Source: Prevotella sp.
Lineage (GTDB): Bacteria > Bacteroidota > Bacteroidia > Bacteroidales > Bacteroidaceae
Direction of reading: 5' to 3'
Assembly (NCBI GenBank): GCA_017548605.1
Contig: JAFYZT010000045.1
Location: 4,332 to 68,331, forward strand
Length of the DNA stretch: 64,000 bases
Under the pieces are notes generated by a model. The model did no database searches. It saw only the letters and a list, made by a program, of their open reading frames with translations, and had not been told where the DNA came from. Positions 5,859-63,297 of this stretch are shown here, one piece after another. How positions within the stretch are numbered: the stretch's first letter is position 1; each line of letters opens with the position of its first letter. Both the position numbers and the translations under genes were made by a program.

Positions 5859-7748
5859 TTACCTGAAAGTCCTGAAGTTGTTGTAAATCATCGAATGGAT
5901 CAATATACTGGAATTCACGTTGTCAGGTTCCTTTTTCGCAACGGCTAACTTATAGGATAATTCGATAATTGCCAGAACTTCTAATGAATTGATGCCAAAT
6001 AACCTAGTAAATAATTTGGTTGTCGATATTTCTGTAAGTTGATCCAATCGGATGCGAGTGAACTGGTTAACACCACAATAGTCGGTCTGGAAGATGCCGC
6101 GTGTGCGAGTCTTGTTGAGATGCTTGGTGAATGTGGGATATGTTTTGGCTGCACACTCTGAATAGTTGGGCAACGGCCAGGGATCCCAGAAATAGGCATT
6201 GCAGGCATTGAAAATCCACGTTGTGTCGCGTTTTGCGGCACAGCCGTGCATCATGTCGATGAATTTCCTTTTCTTCAATTGCACAAACTCATTGATGGTT
6301 TGGCCTTCTTTTTCCTGTCCCCATTCATTCTGTGTGTGTGTCTCGGCTACTTCTTTACCGTCGGGGCGCATGAGATAATCATCCTTGACGGCAATATAAC
6401 CGGCCAGTTCGCCCCAATCGACAGTTTCTCCATCTTCGGTGGGTTTTTCGAACATTACCATCACTTTTCTGCGCAAGTCCTTCATCTTCATGTCGCGCTT
6501 AAAAGTTGCTAAGCAACCTTTATTGAGGAGGTGCTCCTTGATTTCCGTAACTGCTTTTTTGACACATGCTGGTCGGTCGAGGTCGGACGAATCGAAGTCT
6601 AATGCTGTTAAATCGTCAATCAGTGGGGTGAAAATTTCAGATAAGTACCAACCGAAAATTTTGTTTTTTTCTGGCGAAATCCATACGATGGCGCCTTCCT
6701 GACTGCCTTCTGCGGTGACCATTTCAACGATGTCGTCCAGTGCATCAGTGAACTCCGTGTTGCAGTCCAGACAATCATGGAAACAATAGTTGGCGGTATT
6801 CGAAAACCTGTTGCGGATGCGGAGGTCGAACACGCGTACTCCCCGCCGAAACTGTTCCTTCAAATCTACGGCTTGCGAAATTCCGAAGGGTGTCATGACT
6901 TTCCTGATGTTGTATGTGGTACAGTCGTGGGCAGAGGGGATACAGAGGTTGCATATCAACTCTTCATCGTCCACTTTAGACATCCAAGAGTCAAGTTCGA
7001 AGATGGATTCCGCGTTATTGGCAGCTACACTTTTTTTGGCTGCAAAGCAGGCCGGGGCGGCAGACAGAGGATTGCTCTGGGCGGCAGACAGAGGATAGTT
7101 CTGGGCGATGTATTCCTCGTCTTCTGGGTCGGGATAGGAGTAGTAGTCTGTCTCGTCGCTTTGGTCGTTCTCGCTTTCCATCCTGGCCGTTATCTCTTTG
7201 TTTAACTGCTGTATTTTTGCCTTGTCGGTTTTCGTTTCATCAAAGACCTCCTTGCTGAAAGCTAAATAGGAGTCGGCATTCCCATTAACATTCACACATA
7301 GGGAATCGTTGTCGACGCGTTTGATGGAATAATCGATGGAGGTATTGTCCAGCTTTACCGTTCTTAATTCAGGGTTTTGGGTGTAGAAGGCGGTAGTGTC
7401 GATGACAAGATGTAGCACCTCGTTCGATGTGCCATTTGTCGTATTACTGACAACTTGGTAAGTGATGGGCAATGAGAACTGCGCATACTTGTCGGCCTCT
7501 TGGTCGTAAATCCAGAAACCGAAAGACGAGGCCTGTTGCTGTTCCGACAGCTTCAGTTCTACGAAGCCAATGTCGTAATCTGTGCCATCGAGGTCTGCAA
7601 GCCACGAACCGGCCACCTGCTTGGTGAGCTGTGTCATGTATTGCTGCTGGGGTGTCAGTGTCATCTCTTCGTCTTCACTGCATGCCGCCATCATGCCTGC
7701 CAGCAGTGTGAATATTGTCCAAAGTGACAAAAATATGTTTTTTTTCAT
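5859..7748 (-). CDS. lipoprotein with PI-PLC X-domain-like phosphodiesterase region (tentative)
   Basis: Met at 7748 gives the lipobox signal MKKNIFLSLWTIFTLLAGMMAAC. The central IPSAHDCTT ... GVRVFDLR segment resembles the catalytic His/Arg context of PLC-like phosphodiesterases. Confidence 0.65.
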   Translation of the reverse strand: MKKNIFLSLWTIFTLLAGMMAACSEDEEMTLTPQQQYMTQLTKQVAGSWLADLDGTDYDIGFVELKLSEQQQASSFGFWIYDQEADKYAQFSLPITYQVVSNTTNGTSNEVLHLVIDTTAFYTQNPELRTVKLDNTSIDYSIKRVDNDSLCVNVNGNADSYLAFSKEVFDETKTDKAKIQQLNKEITARMESENDQSDETDYYSYPDPEDEEYIAQNYPLSAAQSNPLSAAPACFAAKKSVAANNAESIFELDSWMSKVDDEELICNLCIPSAHDCTTYNIRKVMTPFGISQAVDLKEQFRRGVRVFDLRIRNRFSNTANYCFHDCLDCNTEFTDALDDIVEMVTAEGSQEGAIVWISPEKNKIFGWYLSEIFTPLIDDLTALDFDSSDLDRPACVKKAVTEIKEHLLNKGCLATFKRDMKMKDLRRKVMVMFEKPTEDGETVDWGELAGYIAVKDDYLMRPDGKEVAETHTQNEWGQEKEGQTINEFVQLKKRKFIDMMHGCAAKRDTTWIFNACNAYFWDPWPLPNYSECAAKTYPTFTKHLNKTRTRGIFQTDYCGVNQFTRIRLDQLTEISTTKLFTRLFGINSLEVLAIIELSYKLAVAKKEPDNVNSSILIHSMIYNNFRTFR

Positions 7749-7910
7749 CGTCGTTCCTTTCTGTTTAAATGATATCTTCTTCTTCGTCAATAGTAGTCGA
7801 TTCGGGATCGGAATAGGGATCCAGTTTCTGGAAATGTTCAAAACTATTTGCCATGAGTTTGGGCCTTATCATGTGGAAGGCTATTGAAGTGGGCTTTATA
7901 TATTGTTTTT

Positions 7911-10214
7911 TCATTTCACGAAAATTTTACGTCCTTTGTTGATGTAGATACCCTTTGCCGTCGGTTTGCCATTCAGCAAACGGCCGTCGAGCGTGTACCA
8001 GCCAGAGTCGAGGGTTGAGCATTCATCCGACCTGGGGTCAAGCGGAGAAGAGAAAGATTGCTGTGTGCTGATGCCTGTCGTTTCTTCGACAACAAAGTTG
8101 AACTCATTGGCGAAGGAGACCGTTTGAGGCACCCGCAGATAGGCCTTATAAGCAGGAATACGAATGTTGGAGGGGACATATTGGAAATTGACATGTTCCT
8201 TATTGTCAGAATCCTTGTATTTTGCCAATGCATAATAGATGTAGCCAGACTCCTGTTCGACCGCCGTTGTGCTGCCCAGCAATTGGTTGCCCGAGGTGGT
8301 GCCCTCGTCAATGCCATAATAGCCATCTTGGTATGTCAGGATGAACTTGGCACCTGTTTCTGATAAATGTGCTGATTCCCCATGTAAGATAACAGCCTGT
8401 CCCTGCGGAATGTACAGGCTTCCCGTATTCTTCACCATCACGTTGTCATCTTCTACTTTCGCCACATAAATATCGGGAGTGAAATCCAATTCCTCACCGT
8501 CAAGATAACTGGCAGTCAACGCCAGGCGGTCGTCACCTTCAATGGGCGGACAATAGAGAGAACTCCAGCATGTACCATCGCCGGGAGCCACAGCATTGAG
8601 AGCCATGTCGAAATCGGCATTCAGTTTGTCATGGTAATTCTTTCCCCAAGCCAGCAGGTTTGACACATTATCCACATGACAAGCAAGCGTTGTTTCGCTG
8701 TCGAAGTCATGCACATAACCATACCACTCCAGCGTCGTGGGATTAGGCTTCAGATTGAGTTCCTTGAGACTGGTGCAGCCCGTGAAAGCACCTCTTGAAT
8801 ATTGGGTGTCTTCACTACCGATGTATTTCACACTGGCGGGGATGGTCAGCGCGGTGGCATTTCTCTTGTCGGCCCTCAGGTTAGAACAGTTTAAGAAAGC
8901 AGATGCCTCGATGCGTTCCAACTTGTTGTTTAACTTCACGTAGTTCAAATGTGTGCATCCCTCAAACGCTACCTCACCTATCGTTTCCACATTGTCGGGA
9001 CAGGTAAAATTCTCCAAACTGGTGCAATAACTGAACATGCCCGTGGGAATCTCTTTTACTTCTGCTGGACAATATGTGAAGTATTTGAGTTTTGAGCAGT
9101 CGGCAAAAACGAAGGGCGCAAAGCCGATTTCCCCTTCTCTATAGAAGCGAATTGACTCAAGATTACTACAGTTGGAGAATGCCATGTATCCGATGTAATT
9201 CACGTTATTCATGATAGCGATGGAAGTGAGGGCATTGCATCCGCTGAAGGCACGACCACCGATGGTAATCAGATTCTCAGGCACGGAAACAGTAGATGGA
9301 GGAATTCCTATGTTTGACAAATTCACACAGCCACAAAACGCTTCAAAACCGATATACTCGACGGTGTTGGGGATTTCAATGGACTTCAAGTTCGTCATTC
9401 CACTAAAGGCAGCATCGCCAATACCTGTCAGCACGGCACCATCCAACATCTCAAATACAACATGTTCTATATTTTCTCTTTGATTGTTCCAGTAATGGTA
9501 GGCAGCATTGTCAGGCAGTTCCTTGGTTTTCATCCTGATCGTGAGCTTTTTCGTTTCACTATCGTAAGAAGCAACGATAGGCTTATCCATATCGTAACCG
9601 ACATAGTCATTCAGGTCGCCCAGAATCTTCAAACGTGACTTATTACTGCCCCACTGGATGTTCCAGGCAGAGTATAGAAGATCTTTAACATGAAGAACAG
9701 TTCGGTCAGAAAAGGCCACATCTGCACTTTCCCATGTCTCGAACGGCTGGGCACCGCAGAAGATGTCAGTCACGGCATTACAGCCCGTAAAGGCATCATC
9801 TCCGACAAAAAGACTGCTTGTGCCTGCAGAGATGGAGACGCGTTTGAGCGCATGAGCACCGTAGAAGGCATCTTCGCCAATGCTGGTCACATCCTCTCCA
9901 ATATAGACGGAATGTAGCGAGCGATAAGCGTTAATGCCCGAATAGAAGGCACAATCTCCGATATGGGTCACGCCATCGCCGATGACCACCACGGAAATCT
10001 TATCGTGATAATTGTACCAGGGGGCTGGATGGTTGTCATCATAGTCATCCATTATACCTGTATTTATTCCCGTAATTGTGAGAAGTCCATTGTCCAGTTT
10101 CCAGGCCACATCATCGCCAGCCTTGCCCTGTTCTGCCGCGGCACGTAGAACCGAGGTCATCAGTAGGACGGTCAGAATTGCCAACGTTTTATAATTTCTG
10201 ATTTTTAGTTCCAT
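7911..10214 (-). CDS. BspA-like leucine-rich-repeat surface protein with T9SS C-terminal sorting domain
   Basis: Repeated I-IP--V--IG--AF--C--L units, signal peptide from the Met at 10214, and a C-terminus GWYTLDGRLLNGKPTAKGIYINKGRKIFVK typical of Por/T9SS CTDs. Confidence 0.8.
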   Translation of the reverse strand: MELKIRNYKTLAILTVLLMTSVLRAAAEQGKAGDDVAWKLDNGLLTITGINTGIMDDYDDNHPAPWYNYHDKISVVVIGDGVTHIGDCAFYSGINAYRSLHSVYIGEDVTSIGEDAFYGAHALKRVSISAGTSSLFVGDDAFTGCNAVTDIFCGAQPFETWESADVAFSDRTVLHVKDLLYSAWNIQWGSNKSRLKILGDLNDYVGYDMDKPIVASYDSETKKLTIRMKTKELPDNAAYHYWNNQRENIEHVVFEMLDGAVLTGIGDAAFSGMTNLKSIEIPNTVEYIGFEAFCGCVNLSNIGIPPSTVSVPENLITIGGRAFSGCNALTSIAIMNNVNYIGYMAFSNCSNLESIRFYREGEIGFAPFVFADCSKLKYFTYCPAEVKEIPTGMFSYCTSLENFTCPDNVETIGEVAFEGCTHLNYVKLNNKLERIEASAFLNCSNLRADKRNATALTIPASVKYIGSEDTQYSRGAFTGCTSLKELNLKPNPTTLEWYGYVHDFDSETTLACHVDNVSNLLAWGKNYHDKLNADFDMALNAVAPGDGTCWSSLYCPPIEGDDRLALTASYLDGEELDFTPDIYVAKVEDDNVMVKNTGSLYIPQGQAVILHGESAHLSETGAKFILTYQDGYYGIDEGTTSGNQLLGSTTAVEQESGYIYYALAKYKDSDNKEHVNFQYVPSNIRIPAYKAYLRVPQTVSFANEFNFVVEETTGISTQQSFSSPLDPRSDECSTLDSGWYTLDGRLLNGKPTAKGIYINKGRKIFVK

Positions 10215-10529
10215 CATTATTTGATTATAGTTATTTTGAGCTATTTTTGTGTCCCGCATTTTCATTGCTTTTGACATTGCAAATATAAAAAGTGAAAAGA
10301 CGTATTACAACAGAATTTATTTTTTTCACTCAAAGTCTTTACGACAAATGTTGCTTTTCTACGTCAACCATTGTTTATCCTCAATAAATATGTCGCATCA
10401 GGCGCAAAAAAAGTATAAAAAACGTTGGATTTCAGAAACCTTTTTATATTTGTCATTATGAGCGATACCATGAGGCGTTACCATTCCAAAGATTTTACTC
10501 AGTAATTCCTGCCAGGGTTATGCCAAACA

Positions 10530-10566
10530 AATAAGTCCTGATGGAATCGTTTCATCAGGACTTATT
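10530..10566. terminator. bidirectional hairpin terminator
   Basis: 14-bp perfect stem AATAAGTCCTGATG/CATCAGGACTTATT with T-rich flanks on both strands. Lies downstream of the M6 protease gene. Confidence 0.6.
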
Positions 10567-10635: not shown

Positions 10636-13131
10636 TTACCGTTTCAACACCTTCCTATAGGTGCCGTCGCTCATGCGGACGATGTTGATGCCACGGGCAA
10701 GACCATCCTGCTGACGACCGTCGATGCTGTAATAGCGTGTCATGCCGTCGTTATTGGCGATGAAGGGATGGCTGATGCCTGATGTCTCATCAGGTGTGCC
10801 GCCCAGGTTGTCCATACAGAAATAGCCGGGCGTGGTCATTCCGTACTCATTGCTGCGCGAACTGGTGACAGAGAATGTCAGGTCCTTCACCGTGCCCAAT
10901 TCGGCCAGGCTCACCCACTGCCAGCGGTCGATGTAATAGTGGTCGCTCTCCACCGGTGAACGGTAGTCGGCAAGGTACACCGATGTGGTGGCCTTTGTGT
11001 CGTCGGTACATGTGCCGGTGATGGTGAGCAGGCACCAGTCACCAGTCTGGAATGCACCGGGAGTCATGCCGTCACCCTCGGTGTAGGCCTTCACGTTGTT
11101 GGCGGTGTTGGTGACGTACATACCGCTGATTTCCTTGCCTGCGGGGTCGTTCACCTCGGCCTTCTCTCCGTAAGTGCTGGGGTAAACCACCGCATAGTTG
11201 GAGGAGCCGCTGTAGCCGCTGCCTACGCAACTGTGGTATTGGTCGTCGTAGCTGCTGAACTCGGTAGAGGTCTGGTTAGAGATGGCGTAGCCCGACCATG
11301 AACCCCACCCGGCGTTGTAAAGGGTGGTGAAGGTGAAACCACCGCTCTTCAGCAACACCTTGGTAACATCGGAGCCCCAAGCATCCTGCTCAGGTGTGCC
11401 TTCCATGCCGGCACCGTTGATATAGCTCTCTGGCTCCAAGGCGATATCCTCGAAGTGAGCCATGCCTTCGCTTGCCACGTCATTCACGAACTGCAAGGTG
11501 ATAACACCGTTGTTCTCCTCAATGTTGTACAGTCCTTTGTTCAGGCTTGTACCATTATACACCTTGAAGTTGGGCAGGTTGCTGGCCTCATCAACCATCG
11601 TCACGCCGCTGGTGCCGGGGAAGGGGTCGCCTGCCAACTGTGCATAGTAGATGGCATTTGTCACATTTTCTTCTTTGAGGTGTTTGTTGCTATAACACAC
11701 ACCGTCGGCAGGTACCACGGCCATGCGCGGATGACCAACTTCACTGTTCACGTGGTTCGAACTCAGTGAGAAAAGATTGGCATCATAGTCCACATGGTAC
11801 ACCAGCAGTCCGTTGCCTTTCTGGGCGGCGTTGAAATTGTACTTTTGTATATTCTCAATGATGAAATACTCCTTGTTGCTCGGGTCGTTGTCGTTGCGGA
11901 TACGGTAGGCCTTACCGCCGTCGTCATAACGCTTGAGCTCCAGGTCCTGGCTCTCGGTCAGATCCTCAATGGTTATCCACCCGAAGGCCTCACGCTCCCA
12001 GGCGGTATAGGCACAGGGATAGTTGCCGTTCGACAGGTAATTACCGTAGTCCATCACGCTCCACGTCTCCATCGACTGGTTGTCGGCCTTTTTCGAGGTA
12101 GGCACGGGGTAGAAGTCGGGAAGGCCCATGCAGTGTGAGAACTCATGCACGAACAGGCCTATGCCGTTGATGTGATTGTAGGGCTCTTTCGAATAAGCAC
12201 CGGGAAAACCGTTCAGTTCATTGTTCACACCATAACGGCTCACCGTCTTGCCGTCGAACAGACCGGCCGTCACCGTACCCGACTTGGGCCAGATGCATTC
12301 CACGCTGTTCTGGGCGAAACTCTGGCTGTAGCCGGCATAGATGACATACACCAGGTCCACCTTGCCGTCGTTGTTCGCGTCGTACTGCGAGAAGTCAATC
12401 TCGGCGTCCGCCTTCTGGCAGGCATGCTTGAGCAGGTCGTTCATGTTCTCCCCTGAGCCGTCGTGGTTGGGGTCCGTACTCTCCGAGCCGCCGTAGTACG
12501 ACAGGTTGTTGTCGAGGGTCACGGGACCGTAGATGTCGAACTGGGGGATGTACTGGCCGCCGCTCATGTTCTTGAAATAAAACGCCACACTGCTGATGTT
12601 GTCGCTCTCCTTATTGCCGAGGTCCTGGGGCTTGCTCATGCTGTTGAGGTACTGCTCGAACGAGGCTTTGGGGTCGGGCAGCGTGAAGGGCACGTCGGGA
12701 AACTCGACGAGGATGACCACGGCCTTCGGCGTGCCGGTATGCGGGAAGAGGGTGCTGCCGCTGATGGGCTCGCGCCTCTGCACGCGGCGCGGATACTCAC
12801 GCTCGGCGTAGTTCATGAAACGTCCCATGTCCTGGCAGCGCACCAGTTGCTGCTCCGCAGCACTGCGCAGCGCAGGCTCGTGTGCCAGCTGAGGCGTGGC
12901 ACGCAGCTCACCGTAGCCGCTTACTTCGGCCACGTAGTAGTCGGTGCCCACATGCACCAGCAATACACCGTCGGTGGTGGTATAGTAGTGGAAATCTTCA
13001 TCGCCATAGCCCAAAACGGTCAATTGGGTGCCGTCGCTCTGCGTAATCACCGCAGGTCCGGGATATACAGGAACGCCCCATGTCGTCAATGACATGAGTG
13101 CCACGATAATTGATGTAAAGAGTTTTTTCAT
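10636..13131 (-). CDS. M6-type (InhA-like) zinc metalloprotease fused to a DUF4465-like domain and a T9SS sorting domain
   Basis: Met at 13131 gives a signal peptide (MKKLFTSIIVALMSL). HExxH in VHEFSHCMGLPDFY. The C-terminal ~200 aa are clearly homologous to the C-terminal module of ORF 52850-58429 (GDGMTPGAF..., YYLADYR..., HYY-D-WQWV-L, SRSN-YG-TTP-YFC-D). Tail is RYYSIDGRQQDGLARGINIVRMSDGTYRKVLKR. Confidence 0.85.
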   Translation of the reverse strand: MKKLFTSIIVALMSLTTWGVPVYPGPAVITQSDGTQLTVLGYGDEDFHYYTTTDGVLLVHVGTDYYVAEVSGYGELRATPQLAHEPALRSAAEQQLVRCQDMGRFMNYAEREYPRRVQRREPISGSTLFPHTGTPKAVVILVEFPDVPFTLPDPKASFEQYLNSMSKPQDLGNKESDNISSVAFYFKNMSGGQYIPQFDIYGPVTLDNNLSYYGGSESTDPNHDGSGENMNDLLKHACQKADAEIDFSQYDANNDGKVDLVYVIYAGYSQSFAQNSVECIWPKSGTVTAGLFDGKTVSRYGVNNELNGFPGAYSKEPYNHINGIGLFVHEFSHCMGLPDFYPVPTSKKADNQSMETWSVMDYGNYLSNGNYPCAYTAWEREAFGWITIEDLTESQDLELKRYDDGGKAYRIRNDNDPSNKEYFIIENIQKYNFNAAQKGNGLLVYHVDYDANLFSLSSNHVNSEVGHPRMAVVPADGVCYSNKHLKEENVTNAIYYAQLAGDPFPGTSGVTMVDEASNLPNFKVYNGTSLNKGLYNIEENNGVITLQFVNDVASEGMAHFEDIALEPESYINGAGMEGTPEQDAWGSDVTKVLLKSGGFTFTTLYNAGWGSWSGYAISNQTSTEFSSYDDQYHSCVGSGYSGSSNYAVVYPSTYGEKAEVNDPAGKEISGMYVTNTANNVKAYTEGDGMTPGAFQTGDWCLLTITGTCTDDTKATTSVYLADYRSPVESDHYYIDRWQWVSLAELGTVKDLTFSVTSSRSNEYGMTTPGYFCMDNLGGTPDETSGISHPFIANNDGMTRYYSIDGRQQDGLARGINIVRMSDGTYRKVLKR

Positions 13132-13156
13132 ATTGTTGAGTTTTTGAGTTTCGTTA

Positions 13157-13945
13157 TCATGTTCTCTCCAAATGTTCAACGTAATAGTATTGTCCCTTTT
13201 TCCTCGTCCTGCGGCCATATTCGATGGCGTGATGGGGACAGTGGTGGTAGCAGGCGAAGCAACTGAGACACTGTCCGTCGTGCGACCACTGTGGATGCGC
13301 ATGGTCATCAATGCTGATGGTGTGCGTGGGGCATACTTTTTCACATCGCCCGCAACTAGTACAACGGTCGGCCACCACATGAAATGGTTTGTCTGTTACC
13401 AGATGTTTCACGAACACATGACCTATCACGCGACTGTTCACGCGGGGCCATCGTCCACGAACGATATGGTGCTCGTCCTGCACTCTGTCTTTGATGAGCC
13501 GGGCATATCGCTCCAGCGTGACTGCCGCTGCAGCCTTCTTCTCGTGTTCGCGTTCCGGCGTGTCCACATCCATGAAGGGAAGGCCGACATACGACTCGGG
13601 CATCAACAGCGAGTAGGTGCTGTTCACATGCACCCCCTGGGTCGCCAGGTCGTCACACATCATGTCCATGGCTTCGCCAACGGTGTCACCCGCGGTACAC
13701 AGTGTCCAACAGTGGTGCCCTGAGGCATTCTTAATGCGCAGATGTCCCACAAAGCGTCGCACCGACAGTGGTGGACGCCATCCGTGCACGGGAAAGCAGA
13801 AACCTAACCGCTCACCAGGTTCCAAGTCGTAGCAGACATCTTCAGTCTGACATGGAGACATGAAAACCAAACGCTCATCCAAGAAGGTGGACAAAAAGCG
13901 TGCGGCCCATCGTGTATTGCCTGTGCACGAAAAGTAGAATATCAC
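13157..13945 (-). CDS. EFR1-family ferredoxin (flavodoxin-like domain plus 2x[4Fe-4S] motif)
   Basis: N-terminus is MIFYFSCTGNTRWAA. Two cluster motifs are present, CTSCGRCEKVCP and CLSCFACYHHCP. Lies 25 nt upstream of the M6 protease gene. Confidence 0.8.
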   Translation of the reverse strand: MIFYFSCTGNTRWAARFLSTFLDERLVFMSPCQTEDVCYDLEPGERLGFCFPVHGWRPPLSVRRFVGHLRIKNASGHHCWTLCTAGDTVGEAMDMMCDDLATQGVHVNSTYSLLMPESYVGLPFMDVDTPEREHEKKAAAAVTLERYARLIKDRVQDEHHIVRGRWPRVNSRVIGHVFVKHLVTDKPFHVVADRCTSCGRCEKVCPTHTISIDDHAHPQWSHDGQCLSCFACYHHCPHHAIEYGRRTRKKGQYYYVEHLERT

Positions 13946-13948
13946 GCT

Positions 13949-13957
13949 GCAAAAATA
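13949..13957 (-). promoter_or_regulatory. Bacteroidota -7 box (TAttTTTGC) for EFR1/M6 operon
   Basis: Plus strand reads gcaaaaata, just upstream of start 13945. Confidence 0.5.
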
Positions 13958-14100
13958 ACAATATTTCTCTAACCTACAAAGAATTTGCGATGATTTGAAC
14001 CTTTGTTGTGCTTTTTAACGTCAAATTGTTGCCCAATTCAGAAAATTGACGTAATATTGCAAATTATTTTTCAAAACAGGAATTTATTTAGAAGAAAAAA

Positions 14101-14247
14101 GGAAGAATTAATAGGAAGTAAAATAGGACGTTAAGCACTTCGTGCTGGACAATAGCTTGGAAAAGGTAAAAGAGTAAAAGTCGTGGGCAGAGTATTGTCC
14201 ATTTTAACTCCCTCTTTAACTCCCATGAGCGAAGCGAATTAACTCCC
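14101..14247 (+). repeat. ~150-nt repeat, copy B (5' UTR of paaK-like gene)
   Basis: Same order of blocks as copy A (gttaagcacttcgtgc, ggacaatag...tattgtcc, catgagcgaagcgaattaactccc). Ends 17 nt before ATG 14265. Confidence 0.85.
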
Positions 14248-14264
14248 ATAAAACAATAAATAAA

Positions 14265-15593
14265 ATGGACATTTCCAACAACGAATATTGGCAGCCGGAA
14301 TTGGAGACGATGCCAAGGGAACAACTGAGAGAGTTACAGCTGAAGAAACTGAAAGAGACGGTGGCCAGATGCCTCCGCGCTCCTTTTTATAAGAAACGCC
14401 TGGGAGAGCTGGGCATAACGCCGGATAGTATCACGTCGCTCGACGACATACGGCGCATACCTTTCACGGTAAAGAACGACCTCCGTGAAGCCTATCCTTT
14501 CGGTCTCGTGGCTGGTTCCCTCGACGACGCCATCCGCATCCATTCCTCGTCAGGTACCACGGGACACCCCACAGTAGTGGCTTACAGTCGTCACGATATT
14601 GACTCGTGGGCCAATATGATTGCTCGCAGCATGTATATGGTGGGATGCCGTCCTTCAGACGTGTTCCAGAACAGCTCGGGTTATGGTATGTTCACTGGTG
14701 GTCTGGGCTTCCAGTATGGAGCTGAAAAGCTGGGATGTACTACCGTGCCGGCAGCTGCGGGAAACAGCAAGCGCCAAATCATGTTCATACGTGACTTCGG
14801 CACCACTTGTCTGCATGCCATCCCGTCGTATGCCATCCGACTGGCAGAGGTGTTCAAGGACGAGGGCATCGACCCGCGCACCACAAAGTTGCACACCCTC
14901 TTTATCGGTGCCGAACCGCATACGGAGGAACAGCGTCAGCGCATAGAACGTATGTTGGGCGTGAAGGCGTACAACTCGTTCGGTATGACGGAGATGAACG
15001 GTCCCGGCGTAGCATTCGAATGTAAATACCAGAAGGGCATGCACCTCTGGGAAGACAATTATTTCATCGAAATCGTCAATCCCGACACGCTCGAACCGGT
15101 GCCCGACGGTGAGGTGGGCGAGATGGTGCTCACCACCCTCGACCGCACCCTCATGCCTATCCTCAGGTACCGCACGCGCGACCTTACCCGCATCATTTCA
15201 GAGCCGTGTCCCTGCGGCCGTACCCACCGGCGCATTGACCGCATCCTCGGCCGTACTGACGACATGTTCATCATCAAGGGTGTGAATGTGTTCCCCATGC
15301 AGGTGGAGAAGATTCTGGTGCAGTTCCCCGGCTTGGCTTCCAACTATCTTATCACGCTCGATACCGTCGACGACAACGACATCATGACCGTGCAGGTGGA
15401 AGTGGACGACATTCCCACCGATATCTATCCCGACATGCAGAAGATGGTGCGTGACATCCAACGTGCTCTGAAAGATGAGATTCTCCTCACACCGAAGGTG
15501 AAACTGGTACAGAAAGGGTCGTTGCCCGTCAGCGAAGGCAAGGCTGTGAGGGTTCACGACAACCGCAACAACAAGGCTAAACCCATGGCATGA
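14265..15593 (+). CDS. paaK: phenylacetate-CoA ligase family (PaaK-like) adenylate-forming enzyme
   Basis: 442 aa with the AMP-binding motif SSGTTGHPTVVAYS, YNSFGMTE and a C-terminal ACT-like tail; typical PaaK architecture. Confidence 0.9.
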   Translation: MDISNNEYWQPELETMPREQLRELQLKKLKETVARCLRAPFYKKRLGELGITPDSITSLDDIRRIPFTVKNDLREAYPFGLVAGSLDDAIRIHSSSGTTGHPTVVAYSRHDIDSWANMIARSMYMVGCRPSDVFQNSSGYGMFTGGLGFQYGAEKLGCTTVPAAAGNSKRQIMFIRDFGTTCLHAIPSYAIRLAEVFKDEGIDPRTTKLHTLFIGAEPHTEEQRQRIERMLGVKAYNSFGMTEMNGPGVAFECKYQKGMHLWEDNYFIEIVNPDTLEPVPDGEVGEMVLTTLDRTLMPILRYRTRDLTRIISEPCPCGRTHRRIDRILGRTDDMFIIKGVNVFPMQVEKILVQFPGLASNYLITLDTVDDNDIMTVQVEVDDIPTDIYPDMQKMVRDIQRALKDEILLTPKVKLVQKGSLPVSEGKAVRVHDNRNNKAKPMA

Positions 15594-16243: not shown

Positions 16244-16348
16244 TGTTAAATCATATACATTTCGGTGTATAATTATACGTACTTTGAAATTTAACGTGTA
16301 AATTTGCACCGTGTTTTTCATGGTATTAGATTATTAAGGTTAATTAAG

Positions 16349-16379
16349 ATTGGTTGTCGTGAGACAATCAATTTTTTTT
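16349..16379 (+). terminator. intrinsic terminator after DUF3256 gene
   Basis: 10-bp stem ATTGGTTGTC/GACAATCAAT (one G-U pair), GTGA loop, then a T8 run. Confidence 0.7.
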
Positions 16380-16435
16380 GTGCCCATTTTTCCCCGGAAA
16401 ACGAAGAAACTTTTATGCTTTATTAGCCCTTAGCC

Positions 16436-51093: not shown

Positions 51094-51194
51094 GCTTGTC
51101 AAAAACGGTCCTGGCCGCTTTTAATTTTTTAATTTTGAAATCTTTTAATTTTGAAATTTCCCCAGAACCCTCCGCGGGGCCATGTAGGGGAGTA

Positions 51195-51350
51195 GGAGCG
51201 ATGGCAGGTCTTCTGACTCGCCGCCCGGTGGTGAACGCCTTCCCGACTCATCGTCAGTGGCTCTTCTGTTCACACCGCAGAAGGGCGGCTCACAGCAGCG
51301 GGACTGTCCGGGATTCTCACCCGTGTTCCCTTTTTAATCGCATGGTCTAA
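51195..51350 (-). promoter_or_regulatory. cobalamin (B12) riboswitch upstream of the 1424-aa T9SS protein gene
   Basis: The minus strand reads AAAAGGGAACACGGGTGAGAATCCCGGACAGTCCCGCTGCTGTGAG ... GAGCCACTG ... GGGAAGGCG ... AGTCAGAAGACCTGCC. Near-identical core to the 62.9-kb copy. -7 box at 51407-51415. Confidence 0.85.
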
Positions 51351-51478
51351 CGGCCAAAGCGAACCATTTCCTGTGAGGAGCGCGACAATACGCGCGCTTT
51401 TATACTGCAAAAGTACTCCTTTTTTCTTTTCGCACCAAATAATTCGACAGTTATTTCAGTATAGATGGATAGTCTAAC

Positions 51479-52849: not shown

Positions 52850-55800
52850 TCAACGTTCAACCTTTCTCCAATGCCCGTCTTTCGTCTTTATGATATACAG
52901 ACCATGCTGAACAAAGCGTTCCAGTTTCTTACCATCGAGCGTATAGATGGCTTCGAAGTCGTTGTCGTTGAGTGTGATATCTTCGATACTTTCGGGTATT
53001 TGGATTTCCACATGTACCTTCGCAAACTGAATCCTTCCACGCTGGGTGGCTTGTATGACCATGTCGAAAGGCTCGGTGTAGCCACTAACGTAAAGCGTAC
53101 CTTCCGGTGTCAGCTCCAAGGCATCGAGCACTTCCTGCTCAGGTTGGTCGGCGAAGTCATAGACAATGCGTCCTGCACAGTCTGTGGGTTCGAACAGGGT
53201 CGACAAATCCAATTCGTCTTCGATAACCACGGTGCCCGCATCTTTCACATCGCGCTTGCCGTTGAAGTCATCTAAGCAGAAATAGGTGGGGGTGGTCAGA
53301 CCGTATTGATTGCTACGGCTGCCTTCTAGTTTGAAACTGATGCTGCTCACTTCGCCCAATGAACGCAGATCCACCCACTGCCATGTGTCGAGGTAGTAAT
53401 GTTCCACTTCATCATCGTCGCGGTAGTCGGCCAGGTAATAGGTAGTCTGGCTGGTAGTGCCGTCGGCATGCGTGCCGGTAATGACCATGCGCAGGTAGTC
53501 GTCCTTACGGAAAGCTCCCGGTGTCATGCCGTCGCCATTGAGGATGGCGTCGACGGCCCATGCCTCGTTGGTCACATAGAAACCGTCAATCACGTCGGCC
53601 TCCTTGTTCAGCACGTGGATGCTGCCTCCATAGGGATAGGCCACCACATAGTTCTCGCTGCACAGATGACCGCAACCTGCGGCACTGTTGAATTGGTCGG
53701 GATACATCTGAACGAAGTTGGTGGCGGTACGGTTGGAATAGGCGAACTCACTCCAAGAACTCCATTCAGGCATGTTGGTGTTGTCGAACAGATAGCTGCC
53801 GCTGACGAACGAGCCGCTCATGTCGGCACCATACCAGTAACTCTCTTCGGGCAGGTAGAGGTTTTCGAAGGTGGCTGTTACAGCTTTGCCCGTAACAATC
53901 AACCGAACGGTGTCGCGACCTTCAATGCCGTTAGCATCGACGACGATGGCCTGCCAGTCATCACACTCCTGCGGTGTGGCTTCTACGGTACATGTGGACG
54001 TGGCATCATCAAGGTCGTTCTCGCCCATCACTTCATGTTTGCCGTTGAGCCATGTCACATGATAGGGTGCCTCACCATCGACAATGGTGGCGGTGAGCGT
54101 GGTCGTAGAGCCTAATTTCATGGTGGTGGTACCACTGATGGTTATCTGAGGCACCGTCAGTTCCGTCAGTTCATGACCTTCGGCAATGAATGCTTCGGTG
54201 TTGTAGAGAATGCTCTCCGTGCCTCGCAGACTGCGCAGCATGATGAAGGCTCGGTAGGTCTTGCCCGTTTCCAGTTCCGTGGATACGAGAGAACCCTCGC
54301 TGCCCTTGTGCAGTGCCACACGCTGGCCGCTGGCCAGCACTTCGGCGACGGTGGGTGTCGTGCCGTCTTCCACCACGAGTACGAAGGCTTCGCTGTTCAT
54401 GTCGGCAGCAAACAGAATACGGGCGGTGGTGTCGGTGTTGTCAGTCACACTGGGATAGCCATCGTTCATCACAGGAGCACGGTCATCGTCATCGTATTCG
54501 TAGGCACCGAGGGTAGGCTGCTCAGCACGCTCCGTGCCGTTGATGTCGTCATAGACCCACGACAGCTGTTCACCGCTGACCAAGCCACCAGCATCTGCAG
54601 GTTCCAGAATCTCATCGTCTAGGAAGGTGACCTCTTCATCAAGGCCATCGGTCTCGCCCGACTGTTTTACCCAGAGGGAATGAGTGGCATAGCCTGTGTC
54701 GCCAATCAAGGCGAACAGGTTACCATTGGTATGCCCAGCCTGATGGCGCCATGACACAGGACTGAGGTAACTGTCATTGCTTATGCGGTACACATAACCG
54801 TGACTGCTGTTCTGCAGCACGTTGTTCACCATTTCCACGCCGGCTCCCATCTTGTCGTTCAGGAAGAAGATGGCACCGCTATTCGTGCCTCGGGCAATGA
54901 GGGTGTTGTGGGCAATGCGCAGATAACTCGAACTGCTGTTCACAACCATGGTGTAGTCGGCGTTGCTGATGCCGTTGACCACCACCTCATTGTTGAATAC
55001 GTTGACTGGACAGGCTGCGGTGCCATTGACCAGACGGATGTGTATACCGGTGGTCTCACCAGTGCTGCCAAAATAGAGGTGGTTGCCTTCTATCACAGCA
55101 CTTTCATCGTAGGTGTCGCGCACCTGGAAGTCGATGCCACGGAAGTTGCTGCCGGTCTTTTGCGAACGGATGGTGTTGTGGATGACCTTCACACCGCTCT
55201 CTTCCATCACGTAGATGCCTTTGCTGCCTTGGTCAACGAAGGTGTTGTTCTCAATAACACCGCCTCGCTCCTTGGGTAACACTACATAACCGGTACCGCC
55301 CATACGGATGCCGATATAGCCGCCTTCCAGCAGACAGTTCGTCACTGTCAGGTAGTCGTTGTTTTTGTTAGCAACGTTCGCGGCATAGGTATTGATGAGC
55401 TTGATATCACCATTATTGTAGTTTTGGCTCGTGGCACAGTGGATATGGCAATGGTCGATGGTGACATGGCGGCTCTCATTGGAAATATGCACCACACCGG
55501 GGAATGACAAGTCCTGAGTGGTGATGTCCAGACCACGTAGTGTCACATAGTCACAATGGTCGATGGTGAACACACCGAATTCCTTCGACATCTTGTCATC
55601 GCTGTATGGGGGCTCGTCGTAGTGATCGAAATAGATTTTTACGTCTTCCCAACTGCCTGTCTGACTCTCAATCACCAACGGGTTGTTACGTGAGGTGCCG
55701 GGGATGGCGGGCACCTTCACCACCTCGTTGTAGATGCCGGGAAGGATGCTGATGGTAACGGGACCGCTGATGCCGCCACTCACGGCATCCACGGCGGCTT

Positions 55801-58429
55801 GTATCGTGCCGTAATTACCGCCACGACCCACGGTGAGCTTTCCCTTGAACCCTTCAGAGACGGTCATCACGGCAGGCGTCACTTCGCTCAATGTGAATGT
55901 AGTGCGGTCGGTGACGAGCAAGGTGGGGGTGATACTCAGTGTACTTCCAGCGGGTGCGTCTGCCTTCACATCAATGACGACATGGAAATAACAGGTGCCG
56001 TCTTTCCCGAAGACATAGCTGCCTGTGACAGCCGACAGGTCGCCAGTGGACTCTCCGAAGAGGGCGGTGGGTGAGAAACTGCTTTCACCATCGGTAGCAT
56101 AGACGGCCACACGGTCGATATGTTCGCTGCTTTCGTTGTTGAACGTGAACTGTTCAAGAGTCATCTTACTGCCTTCACCGGCCACACTGATGCCGATAGT
56201 GTACATCAATACATCGGTGACTCCCTGCATCACTACGGCAGATGGTGCACTGACGATGCTTACTCCGGTAATCTCCTGTCGTTCCTCGGCATAAGAACTC
56301 ACGTCGATGGCGAAGCCCTCGGGTTGGTTGAAAGTGCTCTTCACCACGAAACGGGCAGTGAGTTTACCGTCGGGAGCGCTACTCACGAAATAGTCGGCCT
56401 GGGCCGTGGCTCCACTGAGAGCGGCCAACAATTGCGCTTCGGCCACCTCGCCACCATTATATATATATAAGGTGTCCTTGGTGCCCAAAGAGAGTTGCTG
56501 GAAGTCAAAACGTATCTGTTCGCCTGCAGTAAGCGGATAGAAGGTCACGGTGCCGTCGAACTTCTTCGTGGCTTTTCCGTCTTCACCACCATCATCGTAG
56601 AAAAGGATATGCTGGCCGTGGGCTACGCCAATCTCACCGTTATCGCCGGACGCCAGCAAATAGATGTCTTTCACTGTGCGCGAACCGTCGGGATCGCCAT
56701 TGACGACAGCAATGTCATTGCCGCCAGCATTGATACTTATTACACGGGCATCAATCTCGTCTTCGCCCTCTGCATCGTCACTCACATTACCACGCAGTCG
56801 GAAATAATTGTTGCCCTCCTGCAACTGAAGAGGAGTGGTCAGTGTCAGCACGGTACTCTCACCGTTGACGTTGACAGTACCTATGCTGGGGTTGGTCACC
56901 TCGCCGTCGCTGCGACCGAGGTAGTAGAGCGACAATTGCGACAAAGGACTGTTCTTCGTGTCGATGGTGATGCTGTTCAGGCTGATGACACTCTGGTCGC
57001 CCATGGCGGTGATGTTCATCGTGAGCAGGTCGATATCCATGGCGTGATTGGGCACGATGTCGGTACTCGCCTGTGTCACCTCCACCTTATCAACGGCCAT
57101 GGGCTGTGACAGATATTCACTCACCTCGGCCTGCCAGCCGGTGCTGTTGTAGTTCCAGTCATTGGGACAGAACAGGATGGTCAGCGAGCCGTCAGCGGCA
57201 GTGCTGCGGACGATATGGCCGGGACCAACGTCCTTGTCTTCAACGTTGTTCAACTCCCACAGCAGGGTGCCGGTGGTGCCCGAACCGCTGTAAATCTTGA
57301 ATTTTGACTTCACACCACCATAATAGCTGTTGGTGTACTGCAAACCGAACTCGGTAAAGTCAATCTGACAGACCATCCCCTCATGCTTGGGATGGAAGAT
57401 GGTGATACGGTCGTCATTACCGGGCTCGTAGCGGTGCTGGTATTCGCTCACGTCGCGGGTGCGGAAATGCAGACTCCCGTTCACGGTGCGTTCCTGTGTG
57501 CCTTGGTTGGCGTAGCAATAGACAATGTTGTCCACAGGACGACTACCTTCAGGATTGCCGCTGCTGATGGCCGTCATGGTGCCACTGAGGGTGAGGGTGA
57601 TGAGACCGCCGTCGATAGTCGTTCCTTCCTCGGCACCGTCGCTGATGTCATAGACGAGGAAGAAATGGTTGTCACCCTCGTATAGGGTGATGGCTTCGTC
57701 ACAATCAATGGAAAACTCATCCGATGTAATGGCGGTGCTGCCTACAAGCCGTGAACCGGCCATGCTACCGTTGATGCCTCCATAGTATAACTTGGCCGAA
57801 GCCAGATTGGCAAAGGTGCCTGCGGTGGTGAAGATGAACTGGTTAGCGGTCAGTGCCGGCTCGGTATCGCGGGTGATGAGGTTGAAATAGAGGATGGGTT
57901 GGTTCTTGTCGTCAGCACATACGGGGTCGAGGGTGGGGTGGTTGGCCTCCACATGGTCCAGGGCCATGGGCTGTGGCGTGTACTGGGTAATCAGGGCTTC
58001 TATACCATCGGCGGTTTGCTTCGTGCCGTTGGTGCCGAGGAAGATAGTTATCGACCCGTCGTCTGCTGTGGAATGGGTGATGCAGGTCTCCCCGTGGCGC
58101 AGTGTCTTCAACAACTGGCTGGGGTCTTGGCTGTGACCGTTGTACACAGCGATGTATTGGTAGTAGATGGAGCCGTTGGCCAGGGCAACTTTCTGGAAAT
58201 CTACCTGAATTTTCTTCGTCGCATCTGCGGGAACAAAGGTGATGAGACCGTTGTATTCGGAGGTGATTTCTCCATCCTTGCCGCCATCGTCGTAGAGCAT
58301 AATGGGGGTGTCGCCCACGGTAATCTCTTGATGCTCATTGTTCATGAGCACTTCAATGGGCTCGTCGGCTGTGGCATTTCCTGCTATCAGAAGCAGGAGC
58401 CAAGTAATGAATAGTGTGTGTGTCTTCAT
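52850..58429 (-). CDS. 1859-aa T9SS-sorted surface protein: CUB-like modules, parallel beta-helix region, C-terminal DUF4465-like domain
   Basis: Signal peptide. Three units of the LYDDGG-DG...F-P type, beta-helix repeats (NNTFVDQGSKGIYV, IHNTIRS) and a DUF4465-like module homologous to that of 10636-13131. Tail is IYTLDGKKLERFVQHGLYIIKTKDGHWRKVER. Last gene of the riboswitch-led operon. Confidence 0.85.
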   Translation of the reverse strand: MKTHTLFITWLLLLIAGNATADEPIEVLMNNEHQEITVGDTPIMLYDDGGKDGEITSEYNGLITFVPADATKKIQVDFQKVALANGSIYYQYIAVYNGHSQDPSQLLKTLRHGETCITHSTADDGSITIFLGTNGTKQTADGIEALITQYTPQPMALDHVEANHPTLDPVCADDKNQPILYFNLITRDTEPALTANQFIFTTAGTFANLASAKLYYGGINGSMAGSRLVGSTAITSDEFSIDCDEAITLYEGDNHFFLVYDISDGAEEGTTIDGGLITLTLSGTMTAISSGNPEGSRPVDNIVYCYANQGTQERTVNGSLHFRTRDVSEYQHRYEPGNDDRITIFHPKHEGMVCQIDFTEFGLQYTNSYYGGVKSKFKIYSGSGTTGTLLWELNNVEDKDVGPGHIVRSTAADGSLTILFCPNDWNYNSTGWQAEVSEYLSQPMAVDKVEVTQASTDIVPNHAMDIDLLTMNITAMGDQSVISLNSITIDTKNSPLSQLSLYYLGRSDGEVTNPSIGTVNVNGESTVLTLTTPLQLQEGNNYFRLRGNVSDDAEGEDEIDARVISINAGGNDIAVVNGDPDGSRTVKDIYLLASGDNGEIGVAHGQHILFYDDGGEDGKATKKFDGTVTFYPLTAGEQIRFDFQQLSLGTKDTLYIYNGGEVAEAQLLAALSGATAQADYFVSSAPDGKLTARFVVKSTFNQPEGFAIDVSSYAEERQEITGVSIVSAPSAVVMQGVTDVLMYTIGISVAGEGSKMTLEQFTFNNESSEHIDRVAVYATDGESSFSPTALFGESTGDLSAVTGSYVFGKDGTCYFHVVIDVKADAPAGSTLSITPTLLVTDRTTFTLSEVTPAVMTVSEGFKGKLTVGRGGNYGTIQAAVDAVSGGISGPVTISILPGIYNEVVKVPAIPGTSRNNPLVIESQTGSWEDVKIYFDHYDEPPYSDDKMSKEFGVFTIDHCDYVTLRGLDITTQDLSFPGVVHISNESRHVTIDHCHIHCATSQNYNNGDIKLINTYAANVANKNNDYLTVTNCLLEGGYIGIRMGGTGYVVLPKERGGVIENNTFVDQGSKGIYVMEESGVKVIHNTIRSQKTGSNFRGIDFQVRDTYDESAVIEGNHLYFGSTGETTGIHIRLVNGTAACPVNVFNNEVVVNGISNADYTMVVNSSSSYLRIAHNTLIARGTNSGAIFFLNDKMGAGVEMVNNVLQNSSHGYVYRISNDSYLSPVSWRHQAGHTNGNLFALIGDTGYATHSLWVKQSGETDGLDEEVTFLDDEILEPADAGGLVSGEQLSWVYDDINGTERAEQPTLGAYEYDDDDRAPVMNDGYPSVTDNTDTTARILFAADMNSEAFVLVVEDGTTPTVAEVLASGQRVALHKGSEGSLVSTELETGKTYRAFIMLRSLRGTESILYNTEAFIAEGHELTELTVPQITISGTTTMKLGSTTTLTATIVDGEAPYHVTWLNGKHEVMGENDLDDATSTCTVEATPQECDDWQAIVVDANGIEGRDTVRLIVTGKAVTATFENLYLPEESYWYGADMSGSFVSGSYLFDNTNMPEWSSWSEFAYSNRTATNFVQMYPDQFNSAAGCGHLCSENYVVAYPYGGSIHVLNKEADVIDGFYVTNEAWAVDAILNGDGMTPGAFRKDDYLRMVITGTHADGTTSQTTYYLADYRDDDEVEHYYLDTWQWVDLRSLGEVSSISFKLEGSRSNQYGLTTPTYFCLDDFNGKRDVKDAGTVVIEDELDLSTLFEPTDCAGRIVYDFADQPEQEVLDALELTPEGTLYVSGYTEPFDMVIQATQRGRIQFAKVHVEIQIPESIEDITLNDNDFEAIYTLDGKKLERFVQHGLYIIKTKDGHWRKVER

Positions 58430-62845: not shown

Positions 62846-62924
62846 ACAGCTTAACTACTTAACTACTATTTACTTAACTACCCAAAAATGATTATATACC
62901 GCACTAACCCAAGAGCACGGCATG

Positions 62925-63092
62925 TGCTGGGCAAAGGCAGGTCTTCTGACTTCGTTGACCGTCGGCGAACGCCTTCCCGAAATAATCAGTGGCTCGTTGT
63001 TCGCGGCGATAATGACAACTCACAGCAGCTGGACTGTCCGGGACTTACACCCGTGTTCCCTTTTTAATCACGTATAGTGAACCTGTTGCTTT
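62925..63092 (-). promoter_or_regulatory. cobalamin (B12) riboswitch upstream of btuB-like operon
   Basis: The minus strand reads AAAAGGGAACACGGGTGTAAGTCCCGGACAGTCCAGCTGCTGTGAG ... GAGCCACTG ... GGGAAGGCG ... AGTCAGAAGACCTGCC (B12 box). A -7 box lies just upstream at 63102-63110. Confidence 0.85.
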
Positions 63093-63297
63093 GTTAACGA
63101 TGCAAAAGTAACCTTTTTTTCGATATACGCAAAAAAAACACTTAGGTTTTTTAGTGTTCTCATTAAGTGATTTGAAAGGGAAACTTTTTCCGAGATAAGA
63201 ATACGTGAACATATGGTGAAGAGAAATCCCTCTCAACAATAGGGAAAATCCTACACCTGTTTAGGAATTATCCTTTGTCGGATAGCATAATCTGCTT

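Follow-up and report, generated by a model that had tools for sequence, protein, structure and literature searches.

Proteins of the DUF4465 family (PF14717) have been linked to vitamin B12 binding in papers that date from 2025-26. According to the Results and Discussion of one of these (PMC13398666), DUF4465 is the BtuJ family, and B12 binding was found in six very divergent members beyond BtuJ1 and BtuJ2. The same text describes a 1.85 A complex with B12 (9HMU), and two conserved tyrosines (Tyr245 in the HI loop and Tyr146 in the DE helix, BtuJ1 numbering). The HI-loop motif has the form NTPAY/GTPAYF. Passages of a second paper (PMC13616437) indicate that family members with as little as ~16% identity still bind B12. 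BtuJ1 and BtuJ2 of Bacteroides thetaiotaomicron (9FCT, 9QPM, 9I2L) and D5EK51 of Coraliomargarita akajimensis (9HMU) are small stand-alone proteins, either lipoproteins processed by signal peptidase II (SPII) or periplasmic proteins. Here we describe a DUF4465 domain that is instead joined to a protease. The gene lies in a 64,000-nucleotide stretch of DNA from Prevotella sp. (assembly GCA_017548605.1, contig JAFYZT010000045.1, positions 4,332 to 68,331), referred to below in its entirety as the window. A minus-strand open reading frame (ORF) at 10636..13131 encodes an 831-aa protein with an M6 metalloprotease domain followed by a DUF4465 domain.

The best explanation of its sequence and predicted structure is that the protein is bifunctional and located at the cell surface or secreted, combining an M6 protease with a BtuJ-type module. 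We suspect that the two halves might also be coupled, with proteolysis releasing corrinoids that the module then captures, although we hold this view tentatively and stop short of calling it probable.

Gingipains with haemagglutinin/adhesin domains degrade carrier proteins for haem acquisition, and the likeness to the Prevotella fusion is one of outline. The gingipains Kgp and RgpA of Porphyromonas gingivalis are surface proteases, exported by the type IX secretion system (T9SS), that include a tetrapyrrole-binding region and feed TonB-dependent uptake. There is no homology, however. The gingipains are C25 cysteine proteases and the cofactor is haem, whereas the fusion has an M6 metalloprotease and its cofactor would be a corrinoid. 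The coupling of protease and cofactor is demonstrated for the gingipains; for the fusion, we infer it.

The protease and the BtuJ-type module

The preliminary description of this stretch, made from the sequence letters, had recognized an M6 metalloprotease with an HExxH core, and comparisons with hidden Markov models (HMMs) bear this out. The protein matches Peptidase_M6 (PF05547) over residues 134-381 (63.4 bits against a Pfam cut-off of 22) and TIGR03296 over residues 139-446 (182.7 bits against an NCBIfam cut-off of 110.8). The HExxH core lies in FVHEFSHCMGLPDFYP (residues 327-342). The zinc site of M6 proteases has the form HExxHxxGxxD, and this is the form of HEFSHCMGLPD at residues 329-339, in which H329, E330, H333, G336, P338 and D339 are invariant in all 41 aligned M6 homologues. 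When an AlphaFold2 (AF2) model of residues 1-550 (predicted local distance difference test, pLDDT, 84.2) was compared with solved structures by Foldseek, the best match was the zymogen of Bacillus InhA2 (4yu6/4yu5), with E 2e-17 and a query TM-score (TMq) of 0.54-0.55. The link to InhA2 comes from the fold search alone, a phmmer search of the PDB with the whole protein having found no M6 chain.

The resemblance to the InhA peptidases (MEROPS M6; Bacillus InhA2, 4YU5/4YU6) includes the M6 HMM matches, the metal site, the fold and possibly an N-terminal pro-segment, which in the model could be formed by the first ~130 residues. Identity is only ~13%, however, and the Prevotella protease differs in coming from Bacteroidota, in its predicted export by T9SS and in its other C-terminal domains; a role in immune evasion is not implied. 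We also considered a pseudo-protease and rejected it: the metal ligands are intact, and the NCBIfam model for inactivated M6 proteases associated with T9SS gives 25 bits against a cut-off of 600. From its sequence and predicted fold, the M6 half appears to be an intact InhA-like zinc protease in which all of the metal ligands are present.

The C-terminal half recurs elsewhere in the window, in a 1859-aa protein (52850..58429) encoded by an operon behind a cobalamin riboswitch. As had been noted from the sequence, the two proteins share a module: residues 558-781 of the fusion align to residues 1519-1727 of the 1859-aa protein (44% identity, BLASTP E 3e-49, 225 columns), and every sequence block quoted in that comparison is aligned. 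However, the module had been placed at the C-terminus of the 1859-aa protein, and there it is followed by ~130 residues and is not at the extreme end. Pfam assigns DUF4465 to residues 609-776 of the fusion (8.3e-50, 170 bits against a cut-off of 25, profile positions 3-176 of 176) and to residues 1555-1722 of the 1859-aa protein (1.4e-51). Both Peptidase_M6 and DUF4465, the two domains proposed initially, thus exceed their family cut-offs in the fusion.

The module is also related to proteins of known structure. PDB entry 9hmu is matched by sequence at 6.4e-28. The AF2 model of the module (pLDDT 89.9) matches the B12-bound 9hmu (D5EK51) with E 6e-21, a target TM-score (TMt) of 0.86 and 32% identity, and it also matches BtuJ1 (9fct, 9qpm; TMt 0.81-0.82), two structural-genomics DUF4465 entries, and BtuJ2. 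A generic carbohydrate-binding domain had been named as a reading that would undo the B12 interpretation, and it is much weaker because carbohydrate-binding modules (CBMs) match the model only near E 1e-2, compared to 6e-21 for the B12 complex. In a profile alignment to full-length BtuJ1, Tyr245 corresponds to Y770 in the motif TTPGYF, and this tyrosine is invariant in 23 of 23 sequences. A giant T9SS protein of 3053 aa (P0164) has two DUF4465 domains and a full DUF5074 (BtuG-like) propeller, a BtuJ-BtuG fusion that supports a B12 role for this DUF4465 subfamily.

The module of the fusion resembles BtuJ1, BtuJ2 and D5EK51 in belonging to the same PF14717 family, in its predicted fold (TMt 0.81-0.86), in retaining the HI-loop tyrosine and in its expected extracellular location, and its paralogues and nearest relatives are found in riboswitch-led btu operons. 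It differs in its position C-terminal to a protease, in its T9SS-type tail, in the lack of a lipobox, and in an Asn in place of the DE-helix tyrosine. Its gene has neither a riboswitch nor btu neighbors. Good support for corrinoid binding by the module, the premise of the preliminary description, comes from its family, from the fold match and from the relatives in riboswitch-led operons.

The DE-helix position of BtuJ1 Tyr146 corresponds to N678, so the hallmark aromatic is missing. In a regular-expression census of 164 DUF4465 domains, 88 have Y at this position, 49 have W and 3 have F (140/164 in total), against 5 with N; these five belong to four fusion-clade proteins and one 304-aa protein. 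The Asn is genuine evidence for a different pocket, and affinity or ligand preference may differ with it. The point is softened by a bona fide btu-operon member of the family that has Met here, which indicates that the aromatic is not absolute. The substitution could nevertheless mean that the module has lost good B12 binding and now targets the protease, or makes it adhere, by recognizing a different tetrapyrrole, a glycan or a protein. The weak resemblance of the jellyroll to CBMs and the lack of B12 regulation fit this possibility as well. However, the HI-loop tyrosine and its surrounding motif are kept, the similarity to B12-bound D5EK51 is substantial (the 32% identity and TMt 0.86 given above), members with far lower identity (~16%) still bind B12 according to the passages of PMC13616437, and the btu-operon member with Met lacks the aromatic too. 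We consider a change of this sort to be unlikely.

Gene layout, export and B12 context

The features of the gene and its immediate surroundings are as follows, with positions in the window.

13157..13945, minus strand: EFR1-family flavodoxin/ferredoxin gene (NF038196, 1.4e-65)
13072..13131, minus strand: start codon and putative Sec-type signal peptide MKKLFTSIIVALMSLTTWG, residues ~1-20, without a lipobox cysteine (by eye from the translation; start common to the orthologues)
12742..13071, minus strand: N-terminal beta-rich and helical region, residues ~21-130 (AF2 model: strands 27-82, helices 91-118)
11794..12717, minus strand: M6 (InhA-like) metalloprotease catalytic domain, residues 139-446 (TIGR03296 1.4e-53; PF05547 2.7e-17; Foldseek 4yu6/4yu5 E 2e-17)
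12115..12147, minus strand: zinc-binding motif HEFSHCMGLPD (H329, E330, H333, G336, D339; residues checked in the translation)
11464..11793, minus strand: post-catalytic beta domain, residues 447-556, common to the ~600-aa unfused M6 homologues (alignment A1 and AF2 model)
10789..11463, minus strand: DUF4465/BtuJ-type jellyroll, residues 557-781 (Pfam 8.3e-50; PDB 9hmu 6.4e-28; AF2 and Foldseek; alignments A1 and A2)
11098..11100, minus strand: N678, at the DE-helix aromatic position of BtuJ1 Tyr146 (hand-mapped from the profile alignment to 9fct)
10819..10833, minus strand: HI-loop motif TTPGY(F), with Y770 equivalent to BtuJ1 Tyr245 (the profile alignment to 9fct places MNTPSY here)
10636..10788, minus strand: short C-terminal sorting tail ending YYSIDGRQQDGLARGINIVRMSDGTYRKVLKR, residues 782-831, and stop codon (hhalign against canonical T9SS C-terminal domains)
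10530..10566, no strand assigned: 17-bp perfect hairpin ~70 nt past the stop codon, a likely terminator

The ATG at 13131 was taken as the start because the orthologues in two other genomes (loci L001 and L002) begin at an identical MKK and a signal-peptide-like N-terminus comes next. A longer ORF of 914 aa, starting at 13380, was rejected; it overlaps the EFR1 gene, and the orthologues start at MKK.

The tail had been described initially as a T9SS tail, and this holds at the level of profile comparison but not of library models. The last 74-84 residues match neither Por_Secre_tail (PF18962) nor TIGR04183, at Pfam E<=1 and NCBIfam E<=10. In contrast, hhalign relates a profile of the short tails to canonical Por_Secre_tail C-terminal domains (CTDs) with 96.5% probability and E 8.9e-10. 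The alignment spans 57 columns and lacks the middle strands; the input was 72 tails picked by a motif regular expression, and hence with selection bias, and 22 CTDs from Pfam matches. An HMM of the short tail matches 81 of the 4115 ORFs (>=150 aa) in the genome, all three DUF4465 proteins included, and only 4 ORFs reach the Pfam cut-off for Por_Secre_tail. The short tail comes in two flavors in this genome, GIYI.NGKKVVVK and GLNI.R..DG..RKV.VK. The genome encodes T9SS machinery (SprA_N, 782 bits; GldM, 230 bits). We scanned 141 of 149 DUF4465 representatives (E cut-offs of 1e-4, 1e-5 and 1e-6), and 41 of the 141 end in a canonical Por_Secre_tail where Prevotella-type proteins have the short tail. 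We conclude that the tail is probably a shortened T9SS type-A sorting domain.

The short T9SS-like tail is present on all three DUF4465 proteins of the genome (window 10636-10788 and 52850-53000; contig G000:C4, L013 8868-10454), and in two of the three the signal peptide is of a non-lipoprotein kind. In published accounts, most DUF4465 proteins are lipoproteins. Judging from these signals, the BtuJ family in Prevotella seems to be T9SS cargo instead.

The organism uses B12, as indicated by a methylmalonyl-CoA mutase and four cobalamin riboswitches in its genome; CbiD was not found in the genome, which is 92% complete. Rfam places two cobalamin riboswitches in the window, at 62919-63102 and 51186-51383. 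The first leads an operon of four genes, in which the gene for the 1859-aa protein is accompanied by those for a TonB-dependent receptor plug protein, a DUF5074 (BtuG-like) protein and a protein of 360 aa. Of the four DUF4465 domains in the genome, the three outside the fusion are riboswitch-controlled: one is in this btuB operon and two are in a 528-aa tandem protein on another contig. The tandem protein is encoded alone, directly behind a cobalamin riboswitch (L013 8868-10888, G000:C4), in a unit without a transporter.

The same context is found around the closest relatives of the module. In the sampled genomes, the nearest stand-alone relatives (49% and 45% identity) are both encoded in riboswitch-BtuB-DUF5074-DUF4465 operons when wide flanks are included (2/2), and one of the two operons also encodes a BtuF-like binding protein. 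Eight short DUF4465 loci taken with 1.5-kb flanks had no riboswitch in Rfam searches (0/8). For the two of these that were fetched again with wide flanks, this is an artifact of flank length, as both have a riboswitch 3-4.5 kb upstream, where the operon begins.

The M6-DUF4465 gene follows an EFR1 ferredoxin gene, as the preliminary description had it (NF038196, 221.7 bits against a cut-off of 75). The EFR1 gene is 25 nt from the M6-DUF4465 start codon and no hairpin was found in the gap between them; the two genes are probably co-transcribed. A scan with a generic sigma-70 promoter model was uninformative (2 sites, 3.1 expected). The sequence TAttTTTG at 13950-13957 stops 4 nt short of the GTG start codon of EFR1 and resembles the consensus of the Bacteroidota -7 promoter box; such a position would imply a leaderless transcript or one with a very short leader.

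Two genes at 5859-10277 of the window, between the M6 gene and a gene for a 224-aa protein, are not at that place in L001 or L002. They encode a 788-aa BspA-type leucine-rich repeat protein with the short tail and a 660-aa protein without a family match, and they appear to be T9SS cargo genes that were inserted here. An sRNA (small RNA) of the FopS family (RF04319) is conserved beside the DUF3256 gene in all three genomes (window 16311-16381; L001 6784-6854; L002 6812-6882).

Origin and spread of the fusion

Among the best 120 homologues listed, five clusters have both M6 and DUF4465 (71-100% identity), one has DUF4465 only, and 114 have M6 without DUF4465. The M6-only homologues are mostly ~600 aa, and eight contain a dockerin. 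In the species-level genome collection there are two orthologues of the fusion, one (82% identity) in a metagenome-assembled genome (MAG) of Prevotella from buffalo abomasum and the other (76%) in the Prevotellaceae MAG RUG812. Both of their loci have the same order of EFR1 followed by M6-DUF4465, without a riboswitch. A query with the module only found this type of DUF4465 in 30 of 400 genomes, mostly inside giant proteins of ~2100-2480 aa.

All five fusion clusters are near ruminant-gut Prevotella, which bears on the likely substrates. The preliminary description proposed that the enzyme might degrade host B12 carriers (intrinsic factor, haptocorrin and transcobalamin) and capture the released cofactor. 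The general logic is the same as that of the coupling we favor, but a specific action on host carriers fits poorly with close relatives that come only from MAGs of the ruminant fore-stomach or abomasum. Neither intrinsic factor nor transcobalamin would be expected in the contents of the rumen, which makes both improbable substrates there. The broad specificity of M6 proteases also speaks against dedicated host targets. Haptocorrin is present in saliva, according to part of PMC3360681, and some of it could reach the rumen; however, passages of PMC13616437 state that BtuG strips B12 from intrinsic factor without proteolysis. We think it very unlikely that host carriers are the specific targets. 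Corrinoid proteins from microbes or feed are likelier substrates.

The fusion arose in place. The ~600-aa EFR1-linked M6 proteases of Prevotella (e.g., P0008, 69% identical; L006-L012) are orthologous to it over residues 1-556 and have the same kind of short sorting tail, and an EFR1 homologue adjoins the unfused M6 gene in six of nine same-genus loci, which is the basis for placing the event at this site. They differ from the fusion in having no DUF4465 domain and in their tail, which is the GIYI..GKK variant. The junction is visible in alignment A1: ...FVNDVAS closes the M6 beta domain, GMAHFEDIALEPES comes next, and this is the exact start of stand-alone DUF4465 proteins after their signal peptide (ATFEDL...). 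The tail of the fusion is the GINIVRMSDGT.RKV variant typical of DUF4465 proteins and not the variant of the unfused M6 proteases. Junction and tail together indicate that the native M6 tail gave way to a complete mature BtuJ-like T9SS protein, which brought its own tail. The fusion is rare and recent, with its origin in a small clade of ruminant-gut Prevotella.

Both halves seem to be under similar purifying selection. Pairwise dN/dS among the three orthologues (this gene, L001 and L002) is 0.10-0.15 for the M6 domain and 0.12-0.14 for DUF4465, values that are rough because dS is ~0.8-1.5. A cytoplasmic EFR1 protein is encoded directly upstream of a secreted M6 protease in six of the nine same-genus genomes (L006, L007, L009-L012).

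Possible coupling of the two halves

If the halves are coupled, the protein would end up on or close to the cell surface after export by T9SS, and its B12-binding domain would adjoin the end that is anchored. The protease, with its broad specificity, would degrade proteins of the rumen fluid, including corrinoid carriers from lysed microbes, feed, saliva and the surfaces of competitors. The tethered BtuJ domain would capture the freed corrinoid, which would then be handed to BtuG/BtuB, the system that the riboswitch-controlled operon elsewhere in the window encodes. We speculate that the protein could be such a "corrinoid-mining" enzyme, displayed by T9SS, stripping cobamides from carriers of other organisms or of the host and relaying them to BtuG/BtuB, although we are doubtful of this fuller reading. 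To suit the hand-off, the unusual pocket Asn may adjust the affinity of the module or its preference among cobamides.

Several observations weigh against cooperation of the halves. The fusion gene shows neither B12 regulation nor a B12-locus context. As the preliminary description had reported, there is no riboswitch upstream: no cobalamin riboswitch was found near the M6-DUF4465 gene at the gathering score, and none in 12900-14400 at E<=10. Nor was a cobalamin riboswitch or a btu gene found near the orthologues in L001 or L002, and the association with B12 loci that the stand-alone relatives show is thus absent from the fusion gene and its orthologues alike. The fusion arose once, as far as seen. 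In 300 other Prevotellaceae genomes, the 150 M6 matches listed all stop short of the DUF4465 part (266 more were unlisted), and a peptidase domain was found in 0 of the 141 scanned DUF4465 representatives, so that there is no second protease-DUF4465 fusion among them. The ancestral EFR1-M6 pair occurs without DUF4465, which suggests that the basic role of the protease is independent of B12. The Asn in the pocket of the module is a further point against coupling. The absence of a riboswitch is not decisive either way, because BtuJ1 of B. thetaiotaomicron stays abundant whatever the B12 level, according to part of a preprint (bioRxiv 10.1101/2025.07.01.662609).

The M6 core also seems to be a frequent acceptor of unrelated C-terminal modules, and the fusion could be an instance of ordinary module shuffling. 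Homologues of M6 are present in 217 of the 300 other Prevotellaceae genomes and sit in open frames of ~545 to 1371 aa. Another M6 protease of the genome (803 aa; L046 519-2927, G000:C6) has CHB_HEX_C_1/Fn3_assoc modules before its tail. DUF4465 is itself highly modular, with proteins of 218-3053 aa and 1-7 copies of the domain. The two halves might therefore have independent functions, the protease in protein or peptide nutrition and the BtuJ module as an extra surface reservoir of B12, free of riboswitch control, that won export and display by riding on T9SS cargo and gains nothing from adjacency. The wide occurrence of the M6 core with varied C-terminal modules and the modularity of DUF4465 are in keeping with this, as is the lack of B12 regulation at the fusion gene; the behavior of BtuJ1 in the same part of the preprint indicates that B12-independent expression is normal for a BtuJ. 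However, the fusion has been kept, with its halves similarly constrained, across at least three species-level genomes, and an extra copy is less obviously useful in a genome that already has three riboswitch-controlled DUF4465 domains. Independent functions are a serious possibility, if in our judgment an unlikely one.

Capture of corrinoids from other bacteria could also take a more aggressive form. In this case, the protease would shave surface binders of the BtuG/BtuH/BtuJ/BtuK type off neighboring cells and the module would take their cargo. Cells in the rumen are densely packed and compete for cobamides, the ligand of surface B12 binders is partly exposed (Results and Discussion of PMC13398666), and the evidence from architecture is shared with the coupling that we favor. 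However, nothing points specifically to interference with competitors, and by computation it is indistinguishable from general degradation of carriers. We regard it as quite unlikely.

Both component families are known, and in the literature searched the pairing of a protease with a B12 binder is unreported. Searches by term of the BtuJ/DUF4465 literature found no report of it, although supplements (e.g., Table S1 of the BtuJ1 paper) could list such architectures. The words peptidase, protease, fused, fusion and multidomain were not found in the Results and Discussion of PMC13398666. In the portions covered of PMC13616437, PMC12751083 and the BtuJ1 preprint, protease and peptidase occur only in reference titles, in methods and in signal peptidase. 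Nothing relevant was among the matches listed for BtuJ and protease, for haptocorrin and bacterial protease, for T9SS, B12 and BtuG, or for immune inhibitor A and Prevotella.

The fusion is a clean, datable case of domain accretion in which an enzyme acquired a complete mature protein together with the sorting tail of that protein. Should the halves not cooperate, it is an example of ordinary module shuffling among T9SS cargo. Bacterial scavenging of B12 has so far been described in terms of binders and transporters that compete by affinity. If the halves do cooperate, proteolysis would be a new step in the acquisition of cobamides, one that would give access to the large pool of protein-bound corrinoid in the rumen. 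Propionate production by Prevotella in this habitat is under the control of B12. A corrinoid-mining enzyme of this kind would be the vitamin B12 counterpart of haem acquisition by gingipains.

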